Shown here: positions 1,681 to 57,865 of the stretch, one piece after another
Layout of the letters: every line of letters begins with the position of its first letter
How positions within the stretch are numbered: position 1 is the first letter of the stretch
Notes under the pieces: generated by a model
Database searches by the model: none
Seen by the model: the letters and a program-made list of their open reading frames with translations, nothing else
What the model was told of the DNA's origin: nothing
Made by a program: the position numbers and the translations under genes
Assembly (NCBI GenBank): GCA_041663045.1
Contig: JBAZRH010000002.1
Span: 193,946 to 257,945 of the forward strand
Source of the DNA: Minisyncoccota bacterium
GTDB taxonomy: Bacteria; Patescibacteriota; Minisyncoccia; Phycocordibacterales; GWA1-40-21
DNA: 64,000 nucleotides
Direction: 5' to 3'

Positions 1681-2688
1681 TTAATCATTTTTATAAAAGT
1701 TTCTCTCCCAGGAATGTTTTTTTAGTTCTTTCATAAGAGATTTTGATAATTTTCTGCCATCCGAAACAGACATATTTGCTTCCACATTTTTTACTTTTCT
1801 CATACCAGGGATAACAGATGACACTTGATCAAATGATAATATATATCGTAGAGATAACTCGGCAAGTGTTTTTGCTTCATCCCCCATTATTTCCTTAAGT
1901 GAGTCTGTTCTTTTAATAAGATCACGTAACCTTTGCCAAGAAAAATAACCGTGGCGGAGGTCACCTTTTTCAAATACAGTATCTTTAGTAAAATTACCAG
2001 CTAAACCCCCCTCATCTAACGGGACTCTGGCAATCAGCCCAATATTATGTTTTTTAGCATAAGCAAAAAGTTCTTCGGTTGGCTTTTGATGAAAAATATT
2101 AAAAATAAACTGAACGCTTGAAATAAGTCCAGTGTCTAAAGTCTTTAAACAATTGCTAGGTTCATAATCATTAACAGATATACCCCAATGCTTTACTTTT
2201 CCTTCCTTTGTTAATTTCTTAATAGTATTTTTCCAGCCTTCCTCTTTGGCAAAATCATCTTGCCAGACATGAAATTGGACAAGGTCGAGTGTCTTAACCC
2301 CTAAGCTTTTTAGGGAATCATCTACACATTTTTCTATATGATCATTGGGAAAGACCTCAGAAATAGGTGCGCCTTTTTGGGCTGGCCATTTCATATTTTT
2401 GGGAGGTATTTTTGTGGCAATAATAACTTGATCACGCTTCCCTGATTCTCTAAGAAACTTACCTAACAATTCTTCAGATGGATGTTTGTCGGGAAATTCC
2501 TCTGAATATCCATATATCCAGGCAGTATCAATAAAATTACCACCAAGTTCTATAAATCTGTACAAACTTTTTAGACTTTCTTCGGGATTTGCACCAACCC
2601 AAAAATGTGGATCATTAGCAAGTTGCCATGTTCCACAACCGATCTCTGATACTTTTAAATTAGTTTTACCTAATGTTCTGTATTTCAT
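1681..2688 (-). CDS. aldo/keto reductase family oxidoreductase
   Basis: N-terminus MKYRTLGKTNLKVSEIGCGTWQL..IDTAWIYG matches AKR family conserved motifs. Confidence 0.8.
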   Translation of the reverse strand: MKYRTLGKTNLKVSEIGCGTWQLANDPHFWVGANPEESLKSLYRFIELGGNFIDTAWIYGYSEEFPDKHPSEELLGKFLRESGKRDQVIIATKIPPKNMKWPAQKGAPISEVFPNDHIEKCVDDSLKSLGVKTLDLVQFHVWQDDFAKEEGWKNTIKKLTKEGKVKHWGISVNDYEPSNCLKTLDTGLISSVQFIFNIFHQKPTEELFAYAKKHNIGLIARVPLDEGGLAGNFTKDTVFEKGDLRHGYFSWQRLRDLIKRTDSLKEIMGDEAKTLAELSLRYILSFDQVSSVIPGMRKVKNVEANMSVSDGRKLSKSLMKELKKHSWERNFYKND

Positions 2689-2765
2689 GATTATTTAAAG
2701 TAATTATAAAGATATTTTAGATTTTTTATTTATAGGAGAAATATAGCTTAAATAATATTAGAAAA

Positions 2766-3545
2766 CTATATCTCTTTTATTTTTTTAGAAACACCCTCTG
2801 CAAATTTTAAATTCGCCTCCCTTGCTTCCTTAAGTGCATTTGGATAAGTCGGTACATTTTTAATGTCCTTAATATCAAAATTATTAGCAACTATTAAAGG
2901 ATGACGAAACCCAAAAAATTTAGTAGAAAAGGGTTGCATCACAATTACTCTTCTCTTTAATAATGTCGCCCAATAAGCCCCATGATAACTATTAGTAATA
3001 ACTAATTCAGCACTTCCAAGAAAACTTATTATCTCTTCAAAAGAATCGCCATTCTTCATTTTAGGAAAGTCCATGTCCAAATTCCTCATTGGAAAATTTT
3101 TGTGTTCATAGATCACAACCTTATTTTTGATTTCGAATTCTTTATCAAATATGCTGTGCATACAACTTGGGCAAGGAACCCACTCGAGATAATTTGTGCT
3201 ATCTCTTACCCCAAGCAAATCGAACTCATTAGAATTTTTATATTCGTCGTATAATATATCACATCCGCCATGAACATTATGACCAAGTGCCCACCCTATA
3301 AGTAATTTGGTCTTAGCTCCAAGTAGTGCTTTCATATAATCTTTGAAATAATCCTGGGCGATAAAACCACCTCCGCCAAATATAATAATCTTACCTTCAA
3401 TTTCTTTGACAAATTTGTCTATAGGCAACTCAGTAATATCTAAAGTTTTAACATCTTTCAAAAAATCAAAGTATTTTGTAGGTGTGCCAAATTTATCACC
3501 TGTATTAGATGTGTTTTTACGATAGATGTTTACTATTTTTTCCAT
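2766..3545 (-). CDS. polysaccharide pyruvyl transferase-like protein
   Basis: The track ORF 2766..3632 probably starts at the internal Met (MEKIVNIY, complement 3543-3545). It has an N..GD N-terminal motif, a GGGG segment and a C-terminal SYHGAYWATLL segment like the CsaB/WcaK family. Confidence 0.4.
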   Translation of the reverse strand: MEKIVNIYRKNTSNTGDKFGTPTKYFDFLKDVKTLDITELPIDKFVKEIEGKIIIFGGGGFIAQDYFKDYMKALLGAKTKLLIGWALGHNVHGGCDILYDEYKNSNEFDLLGVRDSTNYLEWVPCPSCMHSIFDKEFEIKNKVVIYEHKNFPMRNLDMDFPKMKNGDSFEEIISFLGSAELVITNSYHGAYWATLLKRRVIVMQPFSTKFFGFRHPLIVANNFDIKDIKNVPTYPNALKEAREANLKFAEGVSKKIKEI

Positions 3546-3624
3546 GTATGTATAATAGTAGATAAGTACTCGAAAAACAAGTACGGGCGAGAAAATACAT
3601 TTATTAAATTTAATATAATTTTTT

Positions 3625-4161
3625 ATGGACACAAAACAAACACAGGCAGATAATAATAAAATTGAATTAGCAAAAAAATATGCTTCAGAAAAATTTGCAG
3701 AAACTGGGAAAAAGAATCATTATCTTGATGTTTTTGCAATACTACAAAACGAATTTAATGTGCCTGAACAAGATGTTTTGATTGCGGGACTCCTTCATGA
3801 CACTCTGGAGGACACTTCGGCCACATATAAAGAAATAGAAGAAACTTTTTCAAAACAGATTGCAGATTTAGTACAAGAAGTATCTCATCCAAAGAATTAT
3901 ACTCAGGAACAGAAAATAAAATACTATGAAGATATAAAGAAAATATCAGATGGGGCCAAACTAATCAAAATGGCCGATTTTACATCACACCTCAGAAATT
4001 TTGCTAAGGTATATGAAAGAGGAGAACAGCATCTCCATCCTAAATTCGTTAATAATGATAAATATATTGCAAGCATACGAGATTTTTTGGCTAGTTGTAA
4101 GGAATCAACCGGAAAAAATGTGGTTTATGATTTAACGAACAAACTGGAGGCTTTACTATAG
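3625..4161 (+). CDS. HD-domain hydrolase, RelA/SpoT-type HD (small alarmone hydrolase-like)
   Basis: GLLHDTLEDT motif typical of the (p)ppGpp-hydrolase HD domain; 178 aa stand-alone protein. Confidence 0.65.
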   Translation: MDTKQTQADNNKIELAKKYASEKFAETGKKNHYLDVFAILQNEFNVPEQDVLIAGLLHDTLEDTSATYKEIEETFSKQIADLVQEVSHPKNYTQEQKIKYYEDIKKISDGAKLIKMADFTSHLRNFAKVYERGEQHLHPKFVNNDKYIASIRDFLASCKESTGKNVVYDLTNKLEALL

Positions 4162-5737: not shown

Positions 5738-7572
5738 ATTATTTCCTTAATTTTCATCTTTACTTCCCTCATCTTTAAATCGGTAGTATCAATATAAGAA
5801 ATTTTTATAGGTAAAAACTTTTTAAGTTCATTTTTATAAAATTCCTTAAAATAACCTAAAAATGTTGGATCAAACCAGTTCTTATATTTAATATTTTTAG
5901 AGTAAATTTCTCTTCTTTTCAGACTCTCTTCAATCGAAACATCTAAATATATCAGATGGGTCGGAAAAGTAATTGTATGTTTTACTTTTTCATAAACTTC
6001 GAGCAATGATTTGTATTCATTTGGAGTATTATTTACTTTTGATCTTGCATAGCAATAAGCCAATGTTGTAATAAAAGTCCTATCCAAAATAACTTCCGAA
6101 TATTTTCTATCAATATTATTAATAAAATCGGTTTTATTCTTTTCTATAATTAAAAATTGTCTTGATGTTTCAAGATTATCCTTATTCAATATCTTCTCAT
6201 CTTCTATTTGGAGTTGGGGGATGAATAATTTTTTTTCATCGCTTACATAATTCTTTATGAAAGTCGTCTTTCCCGCACCGGGCATCCCCTCTAGAGCTAT
6301 TATTTTTTCTAAATTATACGTCTCAACTGTATTTCGATTCAAGATAGAGAAAGAAAAATCTTTTGGTAATTCATCTGAAGATATCTCTTTAAAACGACGC
6401 TTTTCAATAGCTTCTTGAAGCCAAACAGGCTCTTTATTTGCCATCGCCTCATTATCTTTACTTGGCCTTTTGACATTAGGAGTATTTAAAACTTTTTCGT
6501 ATGTCCTAATTGTTTGTTTAGCAATTATATTCCAATCATAGTATTTTTTTATTGCAGAATATCCCTTTTTAGATATACGAGTAAGTTTCTTTTTGTCCTT
6601 TAATAGATCAATTATCTTTGTCGTATACTTAGAATAGTCATCCTCGATCAAAAAATAATCTTTTCTATTAAACCCAGCGGTAGCTATACTAGTTGTTAAG
6701 ATTGGAATACCCGCGGCTAAATAATTCAGTAGCTTTATTCGCATGCCCGTTCCTTCATTAATAGGAGCTAGAGCAAAAGTAGCATCTTTAAAGAGTTGAT
6801 TTAAATCAGGGATGGTCCCTATAAAAGAAAAACTGGGTGCAGTACATTCTTTTTTAAGATTTGGAGGGCAATCACCGGCGATTGTAAATCTAAATCCATG
6901 CTTTTGTAGCTCTGGATATATTTGATTCCTTATCACACGCACAGCATCTTCATTTGGTTTAAAATATAAATTACCGAGGAAAACTATATTTTTCGCAGTG
7001 AAATTTGGTTTATTATACTTTAACTCCTTACAATCAACACCGCTCGGAATCACAGATATCAATTCTGGTCTAATTTTCATATACTCCATAAGAGATGGTT
7101 TATCTTGGTCACTTAAACAGATTAGATGATCTATGGATCTACCGACTTCTTTCTCAATATTCTTAATCTCATTTAGCCTAGACATGTTCGCACCAAGTTT
7201 TTTGGCAAGATTTCTTATTACATAATGCATCTCGCTGATTAATTTTGTTCCAGTTAATTGTGCTAAACGTACACCTTGAAGTAAAATTGGTTCCAAATTA
7301 TCAAATTGAATGATGTCGATAGACTCTTTTCTAAGAATGGAAGCGATCAATTCCAAATTATTATAATAGTTTTTTATTGGGAAAATGTAAGTCTTGAAAG
7401 GTTCTTTTTTTATTAAAGATATATCAGACCACTTTCGATACCCATGAAAAATAACAACATTTACATCGTTTAACGCTAAATGTCGTGATAAATAATGAAA
7501 GCGATTTGAAGCACCATCATAAGAAGGAATAAAATCCCCGTCTACAAATATTGCAATATTAATTTTTTTCAT
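5719..7572 (-). CDS. fusion protein: N-terminal GT4 (GT-B) glycosyltransferase plus C-terminal Tmk-like P-loop kinase domain
   Basis: N-terminal GT4 features ending in the E..G..EG motif (PINEGTGMRIKLLNYLAAGIPIL). The C-terminal ~230 aa carry Walker A GMPGAGKTT and the LDRTFITTLAYCYA motif, and are paralogous to 4249..4800. Confidence 0.7.
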   Translation of the reverse strand: MKKINIAIFVDGDFIPSYDGASNRFHYLSRHLALNDVNVVIFHGYRKWSDISLIKKEPFKTYIFPIKNYYNNLELIASILRKESIDIIQFDNLEPILLQGVRLAQLTGTKLISEMHYVIRNLAKKLGANMSRLNEIKNIEKEVGRSIDHLICLSDQDKPSLMEYMKIRPELISVIPSGVDCKELKYNKPNFTAKNIVFLGNLYFKPNEDAVRVIRNQIYPELQKHGFRFTIAGDCPPNLKKECTAPSFSFIGTIPDLNQLFKDATFALAPINEGTGMRIKLLNYLAAGIPILTTSIATAGFNRKDYFLIEDDYSKYTTKIIDLLKDKKKLTRISKKGYSAIKKYYDWNIIAKQTIRTYEKVLNTPNVKRPSKDNEAMANKEPVWLQEAIEKRRFKEISSDELPKDFSFSILNRNTVETYNLEKIIALEGMPGAGKTTFIKNYVSDEKKLFIPQLQIEDEKILNKDNLETSRQFLIIEKNKTDFINNIDRKYSEVILDRTFITTLAYCYARSKVNNTPNEYKSLLEVYEKVKHTITFPTHLIYLDVSIEESLKRREIYSKNIKYKNWFDPTFLGYFKEFYKNELKKFLPIKISYIDTTDLKMREVKMKIKEIICNKKI

Positions 7573-21520: not shown

Positions 21521-22228
21521 TTAAATAATCTTCACTATTTTTGCTTTTTCCGCTGATTTTTTAATAATTATCTCATCTCCTGGATTCAAAGGTATCTCTT
21601 CAGCGTGATTGTCCGCATAAGCCATCGCTGGTCCGCGCATTATTTTCACTTTTATTTCTGAATCATCCCTTATCACCATATGGTCAGATTGCTCCGTACT
21701 GTTATTGAAAGCGATTCCAATACCGACTTCAAAGAAGCTGTCTGTGATAGCACGATAGTAGCCCGTAGAACCAAACGGCGTCGATATTGCCACCCCATCT
21801 CCTATTATTTCATGCCCGATTTGCTTACCATTTACAAAGATTTCATATCTTATGGCTTGTCTTGGGTCGCTATTATGGACGATAATTTCATTTAGCCCAA
21901 CAATTCGCCTGTCTTTTGTATTTCCCTCAATTTTTATTTCTTCTTCGGTTCTATATTCCCCTTTCGCGACCTTCTCTAATATCTCTTCATTTGGCAAATG
22001 ATGACCCTTTTTTGTCGTATGGCTTTTCTTCAAAATAAATTTCGGAATTCCAGGAAAGTCTTTCTCACATTTCATAAATGTGCCATCACCCCCGTAGCTT
22101 GCCACGAGATCGATAGATTTTTCGTGGCTTGCGATTATTTCTGTCCCACTTTCAACCACATCAAGACCCACCTTTTCAGCAAGTTTTTCAATTTCTTTTG
22201 TATTCTCGCCGTAGATTAGAATCTTCAT
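21521..22228 (-). CDS. nadK: NAD kinase
   Basis: GGDGT motif and DGVAISTPFGSTGY (the NadK NE/D...TGSTAY region). Confidence 0.85.
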   Translation of the reverse strand: MKILIYGENTKEIEKLAEKVGLDVVESGTEIIASHEKSIDLVASYGGDGTFMKCEKDFPGIPKFILKKSHTTKKGHHLPNEEILEKVAKGEYRTEEEIKIEGNTKDRRIVGLNEIIVHNSDPRQAIRYEIFVNGKQIGHEIIGDGVAISTPFGSTGYYRAITDSFFEVGIGIAFNNSTEQSDHMVIRDDSEIKVKIMRGPAMAYADNHAEEIPLNPGDEIIIKKSAEKAKIVKII

Positions 22229-22231
22229 TTG

Positions 22232-22297
22232 TCGGGGCGCAGGGATTTGAACCCTGACTATCCGCCTCAGGCGGAGATATTACCTATAATCACACCG
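22232..22297 (-). pseudogene. degenerate tRNA-like copy; its 3' 30 nt are identical to the tRNA-Pro 3' part
   Basis: 66 nt. T-arm and acceptor 3' strand (TAGTCAGGGTTCAAATCCCTGCGCCCCGA) are identical to tRNA-Pro. The 5' acceptor strand CGGTGTG still pairs, but the anticodon arm is a 6-bp stem with a 3-nt loop (TCCGCC-TGA-GGCGGA). Confidence 0.55.
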
Positions 22298-22318
22298 ATA
22301 CCTTTTCTATCTTTATGG

Positions 22319-22389
22319 TCGGGGCGCAGGGATTTGAACCCTGACTACATGCTCCCAAAGCATGGATGCTACCGTTACACCACGCCCCG
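22319..22389 (-). tRNA. tRNA-Pro (anticodon UGG)
   Basis: Acceptor CGGGGCG/CGCCCCG, D-stem GTGT/GCAT, anticodon stem CATGC/GCATG with loop TTTGGGA, T-arm CAGGGTTCAAATCCCTG. Confidence 0.85.
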
Positions 22390-22592
22390 ATATTAAAAGA
22401 TATTAGCATAAAAGTTGTAACGAAGCGAGGGATAAAAATTTTTGTTAGGGGTGGCGAGCCTGCCCCTTTTGAAATGCCTTGGGAGCGCGACGGCGCGAGC
22501 ACGAGGAATTTTTTAGCAAGAAAATATCCGTGCATTTCAAAAGGGGCAGGTCGACAGGACCCCGTGAAAATTTTTATCCAGACAAGCCTCTC

Positions 22593-24595: not shown

Positions 24596-24756
24596 AATAT
24601 TAAACTCCCCCATTAGGATTCGGTCACGACTTTTGCTCGGCCGTCGCCATCGCAAAGTCTCGACCCCGACTCGCTTCCAATCCTGCTGGCTTAGGGCCCG
24701 CTCCGTCCTTTAAATCTTTCGCAAGTAAAGACTTTTACTTGCTTTCTAAGATTTAA
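24596..24756 (-). repeat. GC-rich tRNA-associated structured element (family member)
   Basis: In tRNA orientation it contains GGAAGCGAGTCGGGGTCGAGAC, a stem-loop CTTTTGC-GATGGCGACGGCCGAG-CAAAAG, and ends GTGACCGAATCCTAATGGGGGAG; G+C far above flanks. Confidence 0.6.
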
Positions 24757-24809
24757 ACCCACAACAACAGTTCCGAAGACTGTTGTGATATCCATTTCAC
24801 CATGGGAGC
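24757..24809 (-). pseudogene. partial tRNA copy: D-arm and anticodon arm identical to tRNA-Arg(UCG), with a different 5' acceptor strand and no T-arm
   Basis: 41 nt identical to the tRNA-Arg body; acceptor 5' strand GCTCCCA. The element's terminal AATGGGGGAG could pair with it. Confidence 0.55.
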
Positions 24810-24896
24810 ATTTCATCATAATACGCTAAATTGGCTAAAAATCAAAAAACAATTTTGTTTTTTTATAAAATTGTGTATAATACAAAAAGTAAATTT

Positions 24897-24967: not shown

Positions 24968-25017
24968 CACATAGCAAAAAAGCGCGTAACTGCGCTTTTT
25001 TGCTATGTGTGCGGGCG
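24960..25017 (+). terminator. 26-bp perfect inverted repeat incorporating the tRNA-Gly acceptor 3' strand
   Basis: CGCCCGCACACATAGCAAAAAAGCGC-GTAACT-GCGCTTTTTTGCTATGTGTGCGGGCG. Confidence 0.6.
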
Positions 25018-25548
25018 CAATGATTTTTATAACATTCACACTAAATCCTTTCACATGAAACACGACTTTCTCTCAAAGACACACCTCCCTACTTCAAAGA
25101 CACATAATGACATGAAAAGCAGATATGAAAATAAGTGGATAATTTATAGCTTTTAATATAAGGGTATTTTCACATGAAACTGTGGATAACTATGTGAATA
25201 TGTGTATAAAAGACGACCAATAGAATCTGGCAAATTCGAGCCTTTTAGATGTCTTTTATTAAAAATACGGCTAACTGTGAGGGTAGGACATAAAATACAT
25301 TGTCTGAAATACAATCTGTCCTATATCAAAAACGTTTCTTAGAAACGTTTTAATTTGTCTCGTGTGAAAAGATTAGAATGTGTTAAAGAGACCAAAAACA
25401 CACAAAAATCAATAAAAAATTCAAAAATCTATAATAAACAAGTAAAAATACGTGAAAATCTTGAGTAATTATAAGAATATAATGATTTTTACACGAAATG
25501 AATGTTTTTTTGTGATATTTTGATTAATTATGATATAATTTACTCATA

Positions 25549-41779: not shown

Positions 41780-41874
41780 AATACCGCCCTTTTTGGAACA
41801 CGCATAATTTTCTGCTGAAAATTTGCTCCCTCTCATGCCGTCGCATTCCGAGAGTTTCCAAAAAGGGCGGTATT
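41780..41874. repeat. 19-bp perfect inverted repeat with 57-nt spacer downstream of pnp
   Basis: AATACCGCCCTTTTTGGAA ... TTCCAAAAAGGGCGGTATT, followed by a second terminator hairpin at 41891..41925 and TATAAT at 41931-41936. Confidence 0.6.
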
Positions 41875-46058: not shown

Positions 46059-46991
46059 ATGGCTCCGATGTCAACAAAAACATTGGCTCCGTCAGTAGTG
46101 ACCGATCGGGATCCGAAGGGTATGAAGTTCATGGCGATCTGTGCTGCGGCCTACAACAGGGCGGGCCTTAGCCAAGAAGAAGCCCAGCGTGTAAATGAAA
46201 CACCCGGTCTATCAGGCTTGGTGGATCGCTATATCGCGGAGAATCGTGTCCCGAACGAGTTCAAGGGAGAAGAAGTGCCGTCGAAATACGGCTACCTCTC
46301 GGGTTACAAGAAGCCAGACGAAGTGTATATTCAGTGCAAGTTACTTCATGTGTTTTTCCCAGATCTGGGTTCAGCTCCGGCTGGAACAGAAGACTCGCGA
46401 ATCGTCCATCAGTTTGGTCTCGGCAATATTGCCGGTATACCTCTCGCTGAAGGATGGTTTGCCATTCCGAATTGGATGAAGAATCCGCAAATCTTTGGCA
46501 AAACCTATGCCGAAGCCGTGCAGAAGGTGCTCGACATGATCAAGGAAGCTCGCGGGCGGTTGTACAACTACCGCGAAGGTTCGATCGATGAAGCGCATCT
46601 GCGCCAGTCGGCTCGATCCCTCGAGGCATGGAAGAATATCGCCGAAGAGCAAGGCAATCCGGATATTCTGATTGTCGCCGGCCAGTTTGGTCTGCGTCAT
46701 CGGGGACGTTCGGTTCGTCGGGCGCTCGCAGTCATGCCGAAGCAAGGCGAGTTCGGTTTTGGAGCCTTCGCTGTCGGTTGCATGTTTTTGGTGCATCCGA
46801 ATCGCCTGCAGAATTACGACGATCTCTGGATCGATTGCAGTGGCGACGAGTGGAGTCCGGATGGCGATGGTAAGTTCTCGCTCGCGCCCTACTTCGGCTT
46901 CCGCGACGACGGGGTGGAGTTCGACGCGTGTGGTGTCAGCAATGCGGGCGGCTACTGCGGTTCCGCCTCTGGGTTCTTCCCGCAAAGCTGA
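46059..46991 (+). CDS. hypothetical protein of strongly foreign (high) G+C
   Basis: Start at MAPMSTK (AAAGAAAGGA upstream); the track's extra 38 N-terminal residues cover a non-coding inverted repeat. The opposite-strand ORF 46371..46985 is a GC-bias artefact. Confidence 0.5.
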   Translation: MAPMSTKTLAPSVVTDRDPKGMKFMAICAAAYNRAGLSQEEAQRVNETPGLSGLVDRYIAENRVPNEFKGEEVPSKYGYLSGYKKPDEVYIQCKLLHVFFPDLGSAPAGTEDSRIVHQFGLGNIAGIPLAEGWFAIPNWMKNPQIFGKTYAEAVQKVLDMIKEARGRLYNYREGSIDEAHLRQSARSLEAWKNIAEEQGNPDILIVAGQFGLRHRGRSVRRALAVMPKQGEFGFGAFAVGCMFLVHPNRLQNYDDLWIDCSGDEWSPDGDGKFSLAPYFGFRDDGVEFDACGVSNAGGYCGSASGFFPQS

Positions 46992-50563: not shown

Positions 50564-50584
50564 CATTAACAAAAAATGCCGATA

Positions 50585-50777
50585 ATAAATATCGGTATTT
50601 TTTGTTAACTATGCGAAAGCTTGCCGAGATTCGAACGGCGGAGCACACGGAGCGAAGCGGAGTCTGTCGCGAGCACGCGACAGGCACGAGCCGGTGCCCA
50701 ACCCGAATCCGAGCGACGGCGAGGATGAGAGGTGCGGGCGAATCTCACCTCTTCCGCATTAACAAAAAATGCCGATA
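50585..50777 (+). repeat. GC-rich tRNA-trailing element ending in an exact 38-nt copy of the tRNA-Ser 3' end plus terminator
   Basis: Direct repeat GAATCTCACCTCTTCCGCATTAACAAAAAATGCCGATA at 50547..50584 and 50740..50777. Interior contains antisense GAGATTCGAAC, hairpins CTGTCGCG-AGCA-CGCGACAG and GGCAC-GAGCCG-GTGCC, and ATCC-GAGCGACGGCGAG-GGAT. Confidence 0.65.
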
Positions 50778-50802
50778 TTTATTATCGGTGTTTTTTGTTT
50801 TG

Positions 50803-54690: not shown

Positions 54691-55011
54691 ATGAAAGATT
54701 TTAAAGAAAAGATAAAAAGTCTTTGGAGGGAAGAGAAAACATTTACTTCCCTTGATATTTTTAGACCACACAGAGATTGGAAGACGCTTATTGTCCTGTC
54801 TTTCCTTGTTCTTATAGCTTTATTAACTTTTGACTATTTGGTTTACAGAGATATAAATAATGAGAAGATGTTTGTAGAGGGGAACAATTTGTCAGGAAGC
54901 ATAGAAAGATTAAAAACAGAAGATATGGATAAAGTAAATATTTATTTTAATGGTAAAAAAGAAGCGATTTCTAGTTTAGAGAAAAAACCTCTTCTTGACC
55001 CGTCACTGTAA
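54691..55011 (+). CDS. hypothetical single-TM protein (pilus operon)
   Basis: 106 aa, TM at ~30-50. Confidence 0.35.
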   Translation: MKDFKEKIKSLWREEKTFTSLDIFRPHRDWKTLIVLSFLVLIALLTFDYLVYRDINNEKMFVEGNNLSGSIERLKTEDMDKVNIYFNGKKEAISSLEKKPLLDPSL

Positions 55012-55108
55012 AAATGTTAAATTGCCTATTGTCTGGTATTGATTTGCCCTAAAATATCTTTATTACAAAAATATTCGGGCGAACATCTTATCAGAATTAA
55101 ATGTTTCA

Positions 55109-55180
55109 GCCGCCATAGTTCAATGGATAGAACAGAGCTCTTCTAAGGCTTTGATGTAGGTTCGATTCCTACTGGCGGCA
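55109..55180 (+). tRNA. tRNA-Arg (anticodon UCU)
   Basis: Acceptor GCCGCCA/TGGCGGC, D-arm GTTCAATGGATAGAAC, anticodon loop CTTCTAA, T-arm GTAGGTTCGATTCCTAC. Confidence 0.8.
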
Positions 55181-55480
55181 CAAAATGAAAAAGGTGGAAA
55201 TCAATCCGCCTTTTTCATTTTGTGTCGCCAAGCAAGCAAACTGCTTTGCTTGCGGGTAGGAATCGAACAGCGGAACTATGTTTTTTCAGCAGAAAAAACT
55301 AGTGAGCTGGTGCCCAGACTTTTTCGAGCGACGGCGAGAAAAAAGTCGAGGGAGATAAGCGAAGTGGTCCTGCTGGAATCGAAGCCCCATTGAGCGTTTT
55401 TTGTAATTTCTGAATGAACAAAAAATCCAATGGGGGGGGTACTGACCCTGTAAGGGTCGATATCCTGCTGGCGGCTTTTT
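55181..55480 (+). repeat. composite GC-rich tRNA-trailing element(s) with two degenerate copies of the tRNA-Arg 3' end
   Basis: Terminator at 55180..55224; antisense GTAGGAATCGAAC (55256..55268); hairpin GACTTTTTC-GAGCGACGGCGAG-AAAAAAGTC (55317..55347); 3'-end-like GGAATCGAAGCCCC and GGGTCGATATCCTGCTGGCGGC-TTTTT (55454..55480). Confidence 0.6.
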
Positions 55481-55516
55481 GTAAAATCTCTCTCTTTGTG
55501 TTATAAATGTCTGGTT

Positions 55517-55589
55517 GGGCGATTAGCTCAGTTGGTAGAGCGCTTCATTTACACTGAAGATGTCACAGGTTCGAGTCCTGTATCGCCCA
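55517..55589 (+). tRNA. tRNA-Val (anticodon UAC)
   Basis: Acceptor GGGCGAT/ATCGCCC, D-arm GCTCAGTTGGTAGAGC, anticodon stem CTTCA/TGAAG with loop TTTACAC, T-arm ACAGGTTCGAGTCCTGT. Confidence 0.85.
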
Positions 55590-55742
55590 CAGGCAAAAAG
55601 AGGGCAAATGCGAAAACTTGAAGTATTTGTTCTCTTTTTGGCTAATGATACAGGATTCGAAAGACGGAACACGACGGTGTGAGTCGGGGTCGCAGGATTT
55701 TCTAGCAGGAAAATACCTGTGACCGAGTCCTGTATCGCCCAC
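55590..55742 (+). repeat. GC-rich tRNA-trailing element ending in a 19-nt exact copy of the tRNA-Val 3' end
   Basis: Antisense GATACAGGATTCG (55647..55659); GGTGTGAGTCGGGGTCGCAGG; junction CTGTGACCGAGTCCTGTATCGCCCAC (55717..55742) then TTTTTT-ATG of rluA. Confidence 0.65.
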
Positions 55743-55748
55743 TTTTTT

Positions 55749-56492
55749 ATGAAAAAATCCCCAGAAATAGAAATACTATATGAAGATAAAGACGCATTGG
55801 TTATAAACAAACCTGCTGGGCTTATTGTGCATCCCGACGGGCATACAGAAGAACCGACCCTCGTGGACTGGATTTTGAAGAAGTATCCGAGAATGAAAAA
55901 AGTTGGCGAACCACTTGTACTTTCGGATGGCACGGAAATCTTCCGCCCAGGGATTGTCCATAGAATAGACCGCGATACTTCTGGTGCACTTATTATTGCC
56001 AAGAATCAGAAAGCCTACGAATTCTTGAAAGGTCAATTTAAAGCGAGAAAGGTTCATAAAATCTATCATGCATTTATTTATGGGAATTTAAAAGAAGACA
56101 GAGGAATGATAGACCGCCCGATAGGTAGAAGTCCGAACGATTTCAGAAAATGGTCTGCACAGAGAGGGGCAAGAGGTGAACTTCGTCCGGCAACCACATA
56201 TTTTAGAGTGCTCGCAAGAAAAGACGGCATTACTTTCATTGAAGCAATACCAAAAACCGGTAGAACGCATCAAATCCGCACACATTTTAAAGCTATAAAC
56301 TATCCTGTGGTGCAAGATCATCTTTATGCCACCAGGAATCTTTTGGATCAAAAGAATCAAGCAGGATTCAAAAGGCTCGCCCTTCATGCCAAAGAGCTTG
56401 AGATTAAGATTTCACCGGAGAAGACTATAAATATTAAAGCCCCGTACCCGAGAGATTTCGATAAAGCAGTGAAAGAAATAAATAAAGTTTAG
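55749..56492 (+). CDS. rluA: RluA-family pseudouridine synthase
   Basis: [16 protein letters not shown] catalytic motif. Start taken at ATG 55749; the track's GTG start at 55719 translates the tRNA-3'-end copy (MTESCIAHFF). Confidence 0.8.
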
Positions 56493-56493
56493 C

Positions 56494-56991
56494 TTGCTAA
56501 TTGAGGCTGATTATGTTAAATTACTCATCACTATGGAATTAAAGAATATCAAAGTGGCACCGATAGATGTTGAAGCAAGAAAGAATGTAGACATAAGACC
56601 AGGAGATACCGTTCGTGTCTGGCAGAAAATTCAGGAAGGCGAAAAATCAAGACTTCAAGCTTTTGAAGGTGTTGTCCTTGCTAAAAAACACGGCAAAGAA
56701 AATGGCGGAACATTTACCGTAAGAAAAGTTATAGACAGTGTTGGAGTAGAGAGAATCTTTCCGTTATACTCACCAATTATAGATGAAATCGAAGTTTTGA
56801 AGAGAGCAAAAGTCAGAAGATCAAAACTTTACTTTATCAGAGAAAAAGCCGCAAAAGATATAAGAAAGAGAATGAAGAGCGAACTTTTAGAGGCAAGAAA
56901 AGAATCAAATACAGATACTTCCGAAGCCAAGAAAGTAAAAGAAGAAGTAAAAAAGGCAGAAGTGGAAGCAAAAGCAGAAGAGAAGAAATAA
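56494..56991 (+). CDS. rplS: 50S ribosomal protein L19 with N- and C-terminal extensions
   Basis: [27 protein letters not shown]...[34 protein letters not shown]. Confidence 0.85.
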
Positions 56992-57078
56992 AAAAAGAAA
57001 AGCCGCGCCCTTCGGGCGCGGCTTTTTATAAGAGATTGAAAATAAGGGTAAATCTGCTATTATGAGAAAGTTCGAAAT

Positions 57079-57162
57079 GCACGGGTGGCGAAACTGGTAG
57101 ACGCACTACCTTGAGGTGGTAGCGCCCGTAAGGGCGTGGAGGTTCGAGTCCTCTCCCGTGCA
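57079..57162 (+). tRNA. tRNA-Leu (anticodon GAG), long variable arm
   Basis: Acceptor GCACGGG/CCCGTGC, anticodon stem CTACC/GGTAG with loop TTGAGGT, variable arm CGCCCGTAAGGGCG, T-arm GGAGGTTCGAGTCCTCT. Confidence 0.8.
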
Positions 57163-57311
57163 CAAAATAAGCAAATTTATTTGCTTATGTAATTGGGGAC
57201 GAGAAAACCGGAGCGATGCCGAGCCAGCAGGCGAGGCCGTGAGGCGGGGTCGAGAGTTTTTGTGAGCGACGGCGAACAAAAAACTTGTGACCGAGTCCTC
57301 TCCCGTGCACA
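57163..57311 (+). repeat. GC-rich tRNA-trailing element ending in a 20-nt exact copy of the tRNA-Leu 3' end
   Basis: Terminator-like hairpin at 57165..57188; CCGTGAGGCGGGGTCGAGAG; hairpin AGTTTTTGT-GAGCGACGGCGA-ACAAAAACT (57255..57284); junction TTGTGACCGAGTCCTCTCCCGTGCACA then ATT-ATG of the pduO-type gene. Confidence 0.65.
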
Positions 57312-57313
57312 TT

Positions 57314-57865
57314 ATGTTATTCACTAGAAAAGGCGACGATGGTAAAACCACAATATTTGGCTGTGATCAGAGGCTTTCAAAGAGTTCTGATATTGCTGAA
57401 GCACTTGGAACACTTGATGAGGCGAATTCTTTCCTTGGAATCTGTAAGGCGAAGATGAGAGAATCGAAAACCAAGATTCTTAATTTAAAGATTGAAGAAA
57501 TTCTACATGCCATCCAAGAAAACTTATTTATAATACAAGCACAAGTCGCTGGTGGTGACAAAAGAATCGATAAAGAAAAAATTTCTGAAATGGAAAGTCT
57601 GATAGGAGGGATAGAAAGCGAATTGCCACCCATAAAATCATTTATGATTTCTGGCAGTACCGAAATATCCGCACTTTTCGATTTCGCTCGCACACTTTGC
57701 CGACGTGCTGAAAGGAGAGTGGTAGCAGTAAGTGAAGAAAACCTTGCGAAGATAGATGAAGAAACCCTCGCATATCTCAACCGCCTCTCAAGCTTAATCT
57801 ATGCTCTGGCTAGATATTTCTCCAAAGAAGCCGGTATAAAGGAAGAATCTCCAGAATATAAATAA
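57314..57865 (+). CDS. PduO-type ATP:cob(I)alamin adenosyltransferase family protein (MMAB-like)
   Basis: FTRKGDDGKTT N-terminal motif. Start taken at ATG 57314; the track GTG start at 57287 translates the tRNA-Leu 3'-end copy. Confidence 0.7.
   Translation: MLFTRKGDDGKTTIFGCDQRLSKSSDIAEALGTLDEANSFLGICKAKMRESKTKILNLKIEEILHAIQENLFIIQAQVAGGDKRIDKEKISEMESLIGGIESELPPIKSFMISGSTEISALFDFARTLCRRAERRVVAVSEENLAKIDEETLAYLNRLSSLIYALARYFSKEAGIKEESPEYK

Follow-up and report, generated by a model that had tools for sequence, protein, structure and literature searches.

Layout of the tRNA-Arg(UCU) locus

The window (the whole stretch of DNA analysed, 64 kb) contains a tRNA-Arg(UCU) gene that ARAGORN calls as Arg-tct and whose cloverleaf (55109-55180) scores 71.6 bits against the Rfam tRNA model (RF00005), above the gathering threshold. 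The 300 bases that follow this gene are two non-coding, highly structured insertion elements, units A and B, one nested in the other:

55109..55181, + strand: tRNA-Arg(UCU)
55164-55181: S, the tRNA's own 3' segment, GATTCCTACTGGCGGCAC
55182..55221, + strand: trailer hairpin Ht, arms AAAATGAAAAAGGTGG and CCGCCTTTTTCATTTT, loop AAATCAAT (from sequence and RNAfold)
55222..55230, + strand: AS-acc, GTGTCGCCA, antisense of the tRNA end TGGCGGCAC at 8 of 9 bases
55231..55253, + strand: P0, an optional hairpin, AGCAAGCAAACTGCTTTGCTTGC, CUGC in its loop, separating AS-acc from AS-T
55254..55268, + strand: AS-T, GGGTAGGAATCGAAC, antisense of the T-stem 3' strand and T-loop
55269..55367, + strand: type-2 core of unit A, consisting of AG-CGGAAC, P2, TGAG-CT, GGTGCCCAG, P3, CGAGGGAG and ATAAGCGAAGTGG
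55277-55302: P2 of unit A, with a CAGCAG loop
55318-55346: P3 of unit A, hairpin ACTTTTTC-GAGCGACGGCGAG-AAAAAAGT with GAGCGACGGCGAG as its tip
55368..55376, + strand: S'-A, TCCTGCTGG, a truncated 9-nt sense copy of the T-stem 3' strand and the first 3 acceptor nt
55377..55462, + strand: unit B, a 5'-truncated type-3 core consisting of AATCGAA, Pa, GGGTACT, Pb and GATA
55384-55436: Pa of unit B
55444-55458: Pb of unit B, GACCC-TGTAA-GGGTC
55463..55480, + strand: S'', TCCTGCTGGCGGC, a 13-nt sense copy, then the T-run TTTTT

The arms of Ht are 16 nt each and its loop is 8 nt (from sequence and RNAfold), and outward from Ht the stem runs on into the pairing between S and the antisense segments (S:AS) in the RNAfold structure. 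AS-acc is antisense to the acceptor 3' strand plus 'CAC', and its counterpart in loci L002 and L130 reads GTGCCTTC(GG), tracking the different acceptor stem of those loci. The P0 hairpin recurs with compensatory stem changes in many loci (e.g. L016, L022, L038, L076, L083 and L088), and AS-T provides the 5' strand of P1, the helix that closes unit A, whose type-2 core gives a weak match to the type-1 model (55262-55356, 10.4 bits). S'-A is the left copy of the repeat that flanks unit B, and its position in L128 is occupied by an uninterrupted CCTACTGGCGGCAC. S'' is the right copy of this repeat together with the remainder of the tRNA-end copy of unit A, and its T-stem CCTGC matches the tRNA T-stem of the relative L001, not the CCTAC of the window.

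A first-pass annotation of this DNA had placed an antisense T-arm segment and the P3 hairpin after the tRNA, and both are present, at 55254-55268 and 55318-55346, respectively. Of the two sense T-arm/acceptor copies that it also proposed, the terminal TCCTGCTGGCGGC with its T-run (55463-55480) stands, and the other, GGAATCGAAGCCCC (55375-55388), actually combines a remnant of the antisense T-loop with the beginning of the second core, because AATCGAA is the reverse complement of the T-loop TTCGATT and GCCCC... opens Pa. The true first partial sense copy is TCCTGCTGG at 55368-55376, just 5' of the one claimed. A search of the 64 kb for the tRNA 3' end, allowing up to 3 mismatches, recovered 3 sites versus 0.40 expected: the S'' copy, tRNA-Arg(UCU) itself and the nearly identical 3' end of tRNA-Lys. 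No coding sequence was found in 55182-55480 (no ORF exceeds 57 aa), the Rfam search gave no tRNA match in the trailing region itself, and in a simple promoter/terminator scan of 54950-55800 no promoter stood out beyond chance.

Anatomy, fold and distribution of the family

The order of parts in a unit is tRNA, Ht, AS, a structured three-way-junction core and S', where AS is antisense to the 3' strands of the acceptor and T-stem and to the T-loop, S' is a sense copy of the tRNA 3' segment, and the tRNA upstream stays intact. The terminal bases of the elements are ..GACCGA or ..GGTCGA. The duplicate has a fixed left edge, between T55 and C56 of the T-loop, and a right edge that can fall anywhere between 9 nt and more than 40 nt past the T-loop, a variable length that fits neither a DDE transposase nor a classical integrase and in this respect speaks against mobility. 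A reverse-transcriptase stop at m1A58 as the cause of a 58/59 edge was rejected, as copies behind tRNAs with a TTCAAGT loop read ..GACCAA followed by GTC, with AS ..CTTGAA, such that the tRNA-derived part reaches C56. S' pairs with AS in helix P1, which closes the core, and AS is equally able, via Ht, to pair with the 3' strand of the tRNA itself; this strand swap appears when read-through transcripts are folded at minimum free energy.

Covariation was quantified in an alignment of 128 type-1 copies, in which 90.1% of cells are paired versus 68.2% in shuffles, 31 of the 33 pairs vary on both sides, and the covariation score reaches 0.541 compared to 0.168 in shuffles (none of the 500 comes this high) and no more than 0.096 in slid controls. 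One G-U pair is retained in 122 of 126 copies, which identifies the tRNA-sense strand as the folded strand and, by its asymmetry, rules out a tRNA-like gene on the reverse strand. The XY/Y'X' pair is seen in six Watson-Crick combinations. For the type-3 core, a 13-sequence alignment revealed compensatory changes in 15 of the 18 predicted pairs and one invariant U-G pair. The core sequence is conserved across very distant CPR (Patescibacteria) classes, which would be equally typical of a host-functional RNA and to that extent weighs against mobility.

Several candidate identities and patterns were tried, and most of them were discarded. A mapping onto a type-II hammerhead (stem II as P1, GAAA, and GUGACCGA resembling CUGAUGA) was rejected because GGUCG and UGACC pair and covary and GGUC/GACC has a compensatory GGCC/GGCC in L128, a pairing also supported by covariation of pairs 154-156 with 236-238; no Rfam ribozyme match (hammerhead or others) pointed to a self-cleaving core. 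A standard k-turn is possible at P1b/P2 and at the P1 junction, where tandem G-A motifs are present and the 3-nt bulge is lacking. A guide RNA of the TnpB/IscB type (S' as the guide, TTCGA as the adjacent motif) was rejected since its target would be the resident tRNA gene itself and the Rfam search yielded neither IS605 nor HEARO. An apparent excess of 5'- over 3'-truncation was likewise dropped, the motif count being dominated by chance GTGACCGA matches and by full copies that the regular expression missed.

Where S and S' differ, AS follows the S of the tRNA at 89 positions and S' at 37, so that the S-Ht-AS hairpin is the better-kept pairing compared to P1; in L035, AS matches S' and departs from the tRNA. 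AS complements the tRNA 3' strand exactly and does not copy the G-U-containing 5' strands (L074, L100). The tracking of S by AS could reflect selection for function instead of template switching, which is a further consideration against a mobile element.

A pattern scan of genome contigs matched at least 120 loci, and among the pattern matches listed the copies confirmed by model R1 lie on CPR-like (low-GC) contigs only, with none at the 23 GC-rich non-CPR loci. A same-strand tRNA lies shortly upstream in 71 of the 120 pattern matches listed and in 94 of the 128 R1 matches. These tRNAs belong to at least 16 isotypes, and the element follows 30-130 nt behind, always in the orientation of the tRNA; some copies lie far from tRNAs and antisense to flanking genes. 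Tandem arrays (L008, and L207 with four identical 88-nt units) and nested partial copies (L010, L146) occur, as do gene-carrying versions with the AS-core-S' module at their end, such as the one in L025, whose cargo measures 2.4 kb and whose repeat is ~50 nt; L071 and L072 hold larger gene-carrying inserts bounded by this module or by a T-loop repeat, like L025. For 198 tRNAs at unselected loci, the 400 nt downstream contain a 13-nt sense match to the tRNA's own 3' end (no more than 1 mismatch) in 31 cases (~16%) and an antisense match in 9, and in the 400 nt upstream, taken as the control, neither was found for any of the 198. Eight GAGCYGGTGCCCA (type-2) cores were found in the window and related loci, with the XY/Y'X' pairs complete in 7 (AG/CT, GG/CC) and partial in L163 (AA/CT). 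The type-3 core pattern gave 28 matches in CPR loci, mostly type-3 cores, with a few within coding sequence.

The family is found again at several places in the window:

55591..55742, + strand: type-1 member behind tRNA-Val (model R1, 98.5 bits)
57164..57310, + strand: type-1 member behind tRNA-Leu (147-nt insert relative to L127; R1 match)
50565..50757, + strand: type-2 member behind tRNA-Ser (tRNA terminator duplicated after S')
24596..24738, - strand: type-1 member with a degenerate tRNA-Arg(UCG) copy on one side and the intact gene on the other (R1, 31.6 and 33.3 bits)
41782..41868, - strand: type-1b copy with no adjoining tRNA (R1, 50.9 bits)
22461..22552, + strand: type-1b copy not beside a tRNA 3' end (R1, 42.7 bits)

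In total, at least 5 of the 11 tRNA genes in the window carry a downstream copy of their own 3' end. Alignment with the copies behind tRNA-Val, tRNA-Leu, tRNA-Ser and tRNA-Arg(UCG) revealed similarity well past the GAGCGACGGCGAG hairpin, the common parts being the junction GAA(A/C), the covarying XY/Y'X', CGGARC, GAG and the AS/S' frame. The type-1b copy at 41782..41868 is closed by a 16-bp inverted repeat unrelated to any tRNA and that at 22461..22552 by a 17-bp inverted repeat; no flanking repeat surrounds either of these two copies away from tRNAs, and L133 and L135 have no counterpart of the latter between the same genes. The paralogues within the window are strongly diverged and hence give no sign of a recent burst.

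With Rfam 15, tRNAs alone pass the gathering score in the 64-kb window, with no match at this level for 55182-55480 or the Val or Leu element, and a search of 54900-57500 with E-values up to 10 returned just sub-threshold miRNA and leader matches on the hairpin. The core pattern found no match in IMG/VR, on which basis a viral origin was rejected. No description of the family was found in searchable full-text papers, the nearest being that of group I introns in the anticodon loops of CPR tRNAs. The family spans Patescibacteria, sits behind tRNA genes and duplicates the tRNA 3' end.

Nesting and insertion polymorphism

By sequence comparison, the type-3 unit sits within the terminal tRNA copy of the type-2 unit, an arrangement seen in the window, L002 and L001. 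Behind the same tRNA, L128 carries a single complete type-2 unit (AS ... GGTGCCCAG ... CGAGGGAGATAAGCGAAGCGGT-CCTACTGGCGGCAC) and L130 the hairpin and antisense acceptor only, with no core; simpler states thus exist at orthologous loci. The repeat flanking the type-3 unit is TCCTGCTGG in the window and TCCTACCG / TCTTATCG in L002. The first-pass annotation had left a choice between nested or tandem insertions of family members and an older, decaying copy: the orthologous loci support nesting, and decay is evident as well, as the inner unit is without its antisense T-stem in the window and is more decayed in L001 and L002, which argues that the type-3 insertion is old. In the window, the type-3 unit (55377-55462) entered the S' of the type-2 unit (55222-55376 plus 55463-55475), duplicating TCCTGCTGG, and afterwards lost its 5' antisense T-stem.

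Comparison of relatives revealed an empty site and different elements at the same tRNA. In L127, whose RluA is 92% identical, tRNA-Leu is directly followed by ATTATGTTATTCAC, and the window has at this empty site the 147-nt insert, with the 18-nt repeat of the tRNA end last, and then the same ATTATGTTATTCAC. The rluA-linked tRNA-Val is followed by three different elements in the window, L128 and L004 and by none in L001, L002 and L130, from which the type-1 member of the window is thus absent. The core behind tRNA-Val in L128 closely resembles that behind tRNA-Leu in the window, with a compensatory change (GGGGCCG/GTGGCCGA versus GGGGTCG/GTGACCGA), and the P3 helices of the tRNA-Val element in the window and of the tRNA-Arg element in L001 are identical at 25 of 27 positions. 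Presence and absence among relatives could also stem from loss alone, which would count against mobility. None of the copies has a linked transposase, integrase or reverse transcriptase, and no recombinase was found among the neighbouring genes at the orthologous loci; the only reverse transcriptase seen is of the DGR type (L004-L006), and in L128 a serine recombinase island adjoins tRNA-His.

Competing explanations and known systems

With anatomy, folding strand, covariation, nesting and insertion polymorphism as the observed basis, we infer movement via a folded single-stranded intermediate of the tRNA-sense strand. Our preferred reading, to which we assign a probability of roughly 0.6, is that both units at the locus belong to a superfamily spread throughout Patescibacteria, made up of small (~90-200 nt) insertion elements that are non-coding and non-autonomous, reside at tRNA 3' ends and would be mobile via a folded single strand. 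The favoured intermediate would be single-stranded DNA handled by a recombinase in trans, as with the hairpin sites of CTX phage or integron attC, and the alternative would be RNA copied by a reverse transcriptase. Because S' would recreate the target, later units would land there. Loss would come about by recombination or slippage between S and S', and the match between AS and the tRNA would be kept by template switching inside the S-Ht-AS quasi-palindrome.

Alternatively, the elements could be cis-acting RNA devices that control maturation of the upstream tRNA. AS would pair either with the tRNA's own 3' strand (via Ht), unfolding the acceptor and T arms, or with the decoy S' (in P1), and the choice between the two would fall to the core, acting as a domain that binds a ligand or a protein. 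Such a device would explain the strict tRNA orientation immediately downstream, why AS exactly complements the tRNA 3' strand rather than copying the 5' strands and follows S even with a decayed S', the continuity of the Ht stem with S:AS, the strand swap in the folds of read-through transcripts, and the unpaired core nucleotides conserved across CPR classes with RNA-like covariation and a conserved G-U pair. Nonetheless, we consider it unlikely on the grounds that close relatives have other cores or none at the same tRNA, many copies with an intact core have a truncated or decayed S', tandem, nested and cargo-carrying copies exist, some copies lie far from tRNAs and antisense to flanking genes, the same frame holds two unrelated core architectures, and a regulatory platform upstream of its sensor would be unusual.

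A still more doubtful proposal is that these are scars or miniature derivatives of integrase-borne islands in the T-loop, with S and S' as attL and attR and the core as a conserved attP arm. No integrase lies in or beside the elements, the right edge of the repeat ranges from 9 nt to more than 40 nt with no fixed identity block, double-stranded protein-binding arms would lack strand-specific covariation with a conserved G-U(T) pair, and one core behind different tRNAs would make chimeric tRNAs. In L035, moreover, AS equals S' and is unlike the tRNA, the opposite of what a T-loop crossover predicts. What the proposal does capture is the direct repeat that begins in the T-loop with the tRNA restored intact, the gene-carrying inserts of L025, L071 and L072 bounded by the same module or a T-loop repeat, and the serine recombinase island beside tRNA-His in L128.

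The conserved structure, together with full-length copies in which AS-acc, P0 and AS-T are ordered as in a tRNA and S' reaches the discriminator base, with CCA following in cases where this is gene-encoded, would also suit genes for tRNA-shaped small RNAs that serve the host, e.g. as decoys or carriers. AS-acc:S' would be the acceptor, P0 an arm, AS-T:S' the T-stem and the core an enlarged 'T-loop' domain, with processing proposed to be by RNase P, RNase Z and the CCA-adding enzyme. The acceptor part or P0 is missing in many copies, closing helices are arbitrary in copies away from tRNAs, turnover at orthologous loci is high and the scan of 54950-55800 gave no promoter above chance, all of which leave this explanation with little probability. 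Finally, that S'' and S'-A, partial and imperfect tRNA copies as they are, are mere decaying segmental duplications or pseudogene fragments with chance hairpins is barely credible, as the cores belong to families at well over 100 other loci with significant covariation and the upstream controls are without such copies.

More broadly and only tentatively, we suggest that the elements form a class not recognised before, of mobile structured nucleic acids that have two or more unrelated core folds and would insert at the T-loop region with AS as a guide pairing to the 3' strand of a tRNA or tRNA gene, and/or of RNA switches gating tRNA maturation by S/AS/S' exchange, a new CPR-specific mechanism either way. 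On either account, ~10-16% of CPR tRNA genes would be affected, judging from the unselected loci sampled, in bacteria with tiny genomes and single-copy tRNA genes whose tRNA transcription units these elements shape. The elements also create spurious N-terminal extensions of downstream ORFs (e.g. GTG starts at 55719 and 57287) and generate pseudo-tRNAs, and gene cargo can come after. Mobility through a folded single strand would point to an undescribed trans-acting recombination or retro-mobility system in CPR, and RNA switches would be the first cis-regulators of tRNA maturation. The covariance models offer a marker for CPR contigs and a means of correcting annotation.

Among known systems, group I introns interrupt Patescibacteria tRNA genes at position 35/36 of the anticodon loop, and Patescibacteria are reported to lack group II introns (PMC13011429). 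Like these group I introns, the elements are structured RNA elements associated with tRNA genes, but the tRNA ahead of them is intact and no group I model matches them. As in retroviral and LTR primer-binding sites, AS is antisense to the ~18 nt 3'-terminal segment of the tRNA, and as in target-primed insertion of SINEs the target duplication is of variable length with one fixed edge and some copies are 5'-truncated. Unlike either, the elements have no LTR, no A-rich 3' tail and no reverse transcriptase of their own or of a partner, and their tRNA-derived segments reach C56 instead of stopping at A58.

With REP/REPIN, Correia, ERIC and RPE sequences the elements share being small, non-coding, multi-copy, hairpin-forming, intergenic and variably present. 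By contrast, their terminal inverted repeat is target-derived and tRNA-specific rather than a conserved site for a transposase, a fixed target duplication is lacking, conservation of the core extends superphylum-wide, and roughly three in four copies are associated with tRNA 3' ends, in a single orientation. MITE-like conserved terminal inverted repeats were not found, the P1 arms following the host tRNA or being arbitrary, nor was a short target-site duplication of fixed length.

Tyrosine integrases reportedly insert genomic islands and prophages into tRNA genes at the T-loop sublocation. The elements resemble such islands in that the target is the 3' part of a tRNA, the direct repeat starts from the T-loop, the tRNA is intact and successive insertions stack, and differ from them in their size of 0.1-0.2 kb, variable repeat length and lack of an integrase, and in holding an antisense target copy and a strand-specific folded core, with similar cores behind many tRNAs.

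Folded single-stranded DNA serves as the recombination site both in CTX phage, whose attP hairpin is integrated at dif by XerCD, and in integron attC sites. The elements differ from these in being without dif, attI, R and L boxes (RYYYAAC / GTTRRRY) or a linked integrase: by eye, ..TTCGAAC and GTTCGAA are each one position off the R''/R' consensus, and no dif-like 28-mer with XerC and XerD arms was seen. Their core sequence is also highly conserved, the edge of the duplicate is at the inner stem end, beside the loop, and the intermediate is one that we infer. Like CTX attP and attC, on the other hand, they have a strand-specific conserved hairpin, in which the folded strand may be DNA or RNA, whose stem rebuilds the double-stranded target, the sequence 'inverted arm - spacer - direct arm' corresponding to AS-core-S', and they share with these sites a strand-specific orientation, structure kept over sequence, arrays formed by site regeneration, and the coexistence of empty and gene-carrying cassettes.

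Layout of the tRNA-Arg(UCU) locus and its orthologues

Behind tRNA-Arg(UCU) lie two units with different cores, a type-2 unit (unit A) and a type-3 unit (unit B), which are described here by S (the tRNA's own 3' segment), Ht (trailer hairpin), AS (antisense copy of S) and S' (downstream sense copy).

Features at 55109-55480, read from the sequence
55109-55181: tRNA-Arg(UCU), ARAGORN and Rfam in agreement
55182-55221: Ht, 16-nt arms and 8-nt loop
55222-55230: GTGTCGCCA, antisense of the tRNA end TGGCGGCAC
55231-55253: optional hairpin P0, 23 nt
55254-55268: GGGTAGGAATCGAAC, antisense of the T-stem 3' strand and T-loop
55269-55367: first core (unit A), containing the ACTTTTTC-GAGCGACGGCGAG-AAAAAAGT hairpin (55318-55346) of the first-pass annotation
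55368-55376: TCCTGCTGG, first sense copy
55377-55462: AATCGAA, then a second, different core (unit B)
55463-55480: TCCTGCTGGCGGC and TTTTT, terminal sense copy

All parts of the layout in the first-pass annotation stand except GGAATCGAAGCCCC, which had been taken for a sense T-arm copy but is composed of the TGG of the first sense copy, the antisense T-loop (AATCGAA, reverse complement of the T-loop TTCGATT) and the first bases of the second core. Three sites in the window match the 3' end of tRNA-Arg(UCU), well above the 0.40 expected: the copy at 55463, the tRNA's own end and that of tRNA-Lys, which is nearly identical. The terminal copy retains CCTGC, the T-stem of the tRNA at the related locus L001, whereas the window tRNA now has CCTAC. 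After its insertion, unit B lost its antisense T-stem.

In related contigs fetched through RluA homologues, simpler states of the kind that the first-pass annotation had proposed to look for are present behind tRNA-Arg(UCU): L130 has only Ht and the antisense acceptor, and L128 a single complete type-2 unit ending in CCTACTGGCGGCAC. L001 carries a type-1 unit followed by remnants, and L002 a type-2, a type-3 and a minimal unit in succession. In both the window and L002 the type-3 unit sits within S' of the type-2 unit and is flanked by a repeat (TCCTGCTGG in the window; TCCTACCG / TCTTATCG in L002). Judged from these sequences, the arrangement is a nested insertion common to both by descent, which bears out the earlier suggestion that family members had inserted into one another.

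The state of L130 is matched in the window at tRNA-Gly(GCC) (24969-25017), where a hairpin and GTGCGGGCG, antisense of the acceptor 3' strand, occur without a core; this may be a precursor of the element or a remnant. An oriC-like region (~25000-25400) lies immediately to its right, with DnaA-box-like TGTGGATAA and AAGTGGATAA and repeats of TTCACATGAAAC; the minus strand carries the tRNA genes left of this region and the plus strand those right of it, and in relatives tgtggataa adjoins the same tRNA cluster.

Extent and folding of the family

The hairpin-AS-core-S' frame also occurs in the window behind tRNA-Ser, tRNA-Val, tRNA-Leu and the tRNA-Arg(UCG) pair, and the tRNA-trailing elements of the window have no match among Rfam families. 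The pattern CGGARY..GGGGTCG..GTGACCGARTC gave zero matches in IMG/VR and at least 120 loci in species-representative genomes, chiefly of Saccharibacteria, Paceibacteria, Moranbacteria and other Patescibacteria (CPR); among the 120 matches listed, 71 lie shortly 3' of a same-strand tRNA. A covariance model of the type-1 core (R1), built from 16 short copies, detected 128 copies from 100 sources; a same-strand tRNA precedes 94 of these copies, and 16 tRNA isotypes bear the element. R1 found no copy in 23 GC-rich non-CPR pattern loci, which are therefore chance matches, and 21 copies in 80 loci fetched via an unrelated gene. For 198 tRNAs in loci chosen irrespective of the element, a sense copy of the tRNA's own 3' end lies within 400 nt downstream in 31 cases and an antisense copy in 9, with neither in the 400 nt upstream (0/198). 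At 46573-46628 R1 gives a weak match (18.1 bits, E = 0.006), in which a part resembles P1/P2 and P3 is lacking.

AS and S' form the closing helix P1, and the type-1 consensus reads AS - GAAA - XY - CGGAGC - P2 - GAG - Y'X' - GG - P3 (base GGUCG/UGACC) - GA - S', P2 and P3 being core helices and XY/Y'X' occurring as GC/GC, GA/TC, GG/CC, GT/AC, AG/CT and AC/GT. Across the 128 type-1 copies, 90.1% of cells are paired versus 68.2% in shuffles, 31 of 33 pairs have changes on both sides, and the covariation score is 0.541 versus 0.168 in shuffles (0/500 reach 0.541) and at most 0.096 in slid controls. Because a single G-U pair is retained in 122 of 126 copies, the folding strand is the tRNA-sense one, as RNA or ssDNA. 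Type 2 has the 5' half and XY/Y'X' pairing in common with type 1 and differs by GGTGCCCAG...CGAGGGAGA around P3; of eight such cores, XY/Y'X' is fully paired in seven and partly in L163. The type-3 core, GCCYGATTGAG-Pa ... UACUG-Pb (UGUAA loop)-GA with helices Pa and Pb, yielded 28 pattern matches, mostly type-3 cores with a few chance matches in coding sequence, and an alignment of 13 sequences has compensatory changes in 15 of 18 predicted pairs and one invariant U-G pair. In both architectures a helix (the base of P3, or Pb) joins P1 directly along the 3' strand, no nucleotide there being left unpaired; this strand (..GTGACCGAATCC.. or ..GGATCGAATCC..) resembles the T-arm GGTTCGAATCC. Helix tips are frequently GCGAAGC-type mini-hairpins, which are unusually stable in ssDNA.

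Duplication edges, pairing and turnover

The left edge of the duplication is fixed in the T-loop, with identity from C56 on (copies behind TTCAAGT loops join GACCAA to GTC there), and the right edge is variable, with a cluster at the T-stem end (9 nt), a larger group 0-9 nt beyond the tRNA end and a tail above 40 nt. The U-tract of the tRNA terminator marks the end of the repeat two or three times (window tRNA-Ser, L038); at tRNA-Ser (50565-50800) a second copy of the terminator follows S', with the 5-nt loop in inverted form (ATAAA vs TTTAT). At positions that distinguish S from S', AS follows S 89 times and S' 37 times, so that the long S-Ht-AS hairpin is the better-maintained pairing; in one copy (L035) AS matches S', both differing from the tRNA. 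Minimum-free-energy folds of read-through transcripts predict that tRNA 5' strands pair with S' and S with AS, resembling a tRNA that bears a giant T-loop insertion. The main rival explanation, an RNA switch gating tRNA maturation via S/AS/S' exchange, accounts for the exact complementarity of AS and for the orientation and conservation of the elements.

Such a switch leaves unaccounted for both the decayed S' copies and the turnover at orthologous sites. In L127 (RluA 92% identical) tRNA-Leu directly adjoins ATTATGTTATTCAC, and at this junction the window has a 147-nt insert (57164-57310) whose last part repeats 18 nt of the tRNA end and beyond which ATTATGTTATTCAC resumes. What stands behind the rluA-linked tRNA-Val differs from contig to contig: in the window a type-1 unit of short form, in L128/L129 a long type-1 unit, in L004-L006 one of type 2, and in L001, L002 and L130 no element. 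Core and Ht behind tRNA-Val in L128 are very similar to those behind tRNA-Leu in the window (with compensatory GGGGCCG/GTGGCCGA), and P3 is 25/27 identical between the window tRNA-Val and L001 tRNA-Arg elements. Tandem arrays occur in L008 and in L207 (reverse complement, 6661-7125), where tRNA-Arg(UCG) precedes four identical 88-nt units of AS and type-3 core; the latter array runs straight into the 3' end of a tRNA-Gly without 5' part. Nor does the switch explain gene cargo or the antisense copies found apart from tRNAs: in some inserts, genes take up 1-2.5 kb and the same AS-core-S' module forms the end (in L025 the flanking repeat is ~50 nt, terminator included), and some copies away from tRNAs are closed by unrelated 16-17-bp inverted repeats.

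Type-1 cores away from tRNA 3' ends in the window, each with a perfect 16-17-bp inverted repeat and antisense to its flanking genes
41782-41868, minus strand: type-1 core
22461-22552, plus strand: type-1 core

In the relatives L133 and L135, the interval between the same genes contains nothing like the copy at 22461-22552; similar non-tRNA copies lie at L139:1214-1314 and L100:5639-5722.

Several further features were also observed. The whole T-arm and acceptor 3' strand of window tRNA-Pro(UGG) (22225-22389, minus strand) recur ~57 nt downstream as a direct repeat of 33 nt, without antisense segment or core, and this repeat is absent from L133 and L135. A degenerate second tRNA-Arg(UCG) (24739-24810, minus strand) has its D and anticodon arms in common with the intact gene 140 nt downstream and a broken T-arm running into a type-1 element, and comparable interrupted tRNAs occur in L117 and L041. 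An orphan element in L023 (~3700-3900) borders on the C-terminus and the end of an IS3-like transposase, which lie between it and its tRNA-Ser, 2.8 kb upstream. The longest ORFs of RluA (55719) and the Cob(I)alamin adenosyltransferase-like gene (57287) begin at a GTG inside the element's GTGACCGA, which makes their N-terminal extensions (MTESCIAHFF.., MTESSPVHI..) spurious; the true starts are downstream ATGs. L004-L006 hold a DGR-like cassette (bAvd and reverse transcriptase; ~2400-3800) between rluA and rplS (RluA identity ~75%), and an island adjoining tRNA-His in L128 (2870-8240) encodes a large serine recombinase, three DNA methyltransferase-like genes and an HTH/peptidase M78 pair.

Interpretation and known systems

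Orthologous sites show turnover, different tRNAs are trailed by similar cores, some copies are nested, in arrays or combined with cargo, one frame accommodates two unrelated cores, and covariation is strand-specific. Taken together, this gives the family the appearance of non-autonomous mobile elements that have to fold in single-stranded form. An ssDNA circle would integrate through a hairpin att site by means of a putative enzyme, and template switching in the quasi-palindrome may keep AS matched to each tRNA. We favour this ssDNA route over one through RNA and reverse transcriptase because the far-end layout of the insert would be that of a hairpin-att integration product, and the GCGAAGC-type tips add a weak hint.

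Full-text literature searches found no description of such elements; the nearest paper concerns group I introns in Patescibacteria tRNA anticodon loops (PMC13011429), a different thing. We would rate the elements as an unreported form of a known kind, tRNA-end insertion elements, and put the chance of a categorically new mechanism at about one in four. They fail membership of known ribozymes and of every Rfam family. Unlike integrase islands they have neither integrase nor fixed identity block, unlike MITEs neither conserved terminal repeats nor fixed duplication, unlike attC and dif sites no boxes, and unlike SINEs neither tail nor partner reverse transcriptase. They behave like both tRNA-targeting integrative elements and folded-DNA cassettes. 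Hairpin att-site integration of a single-stranded circle (CTX phage, integron attC) leaves an inverted arm, a spacer and a direct arm, and the far insert end of the elements likewise consists of inverted arm, structured spacer and direct arm.
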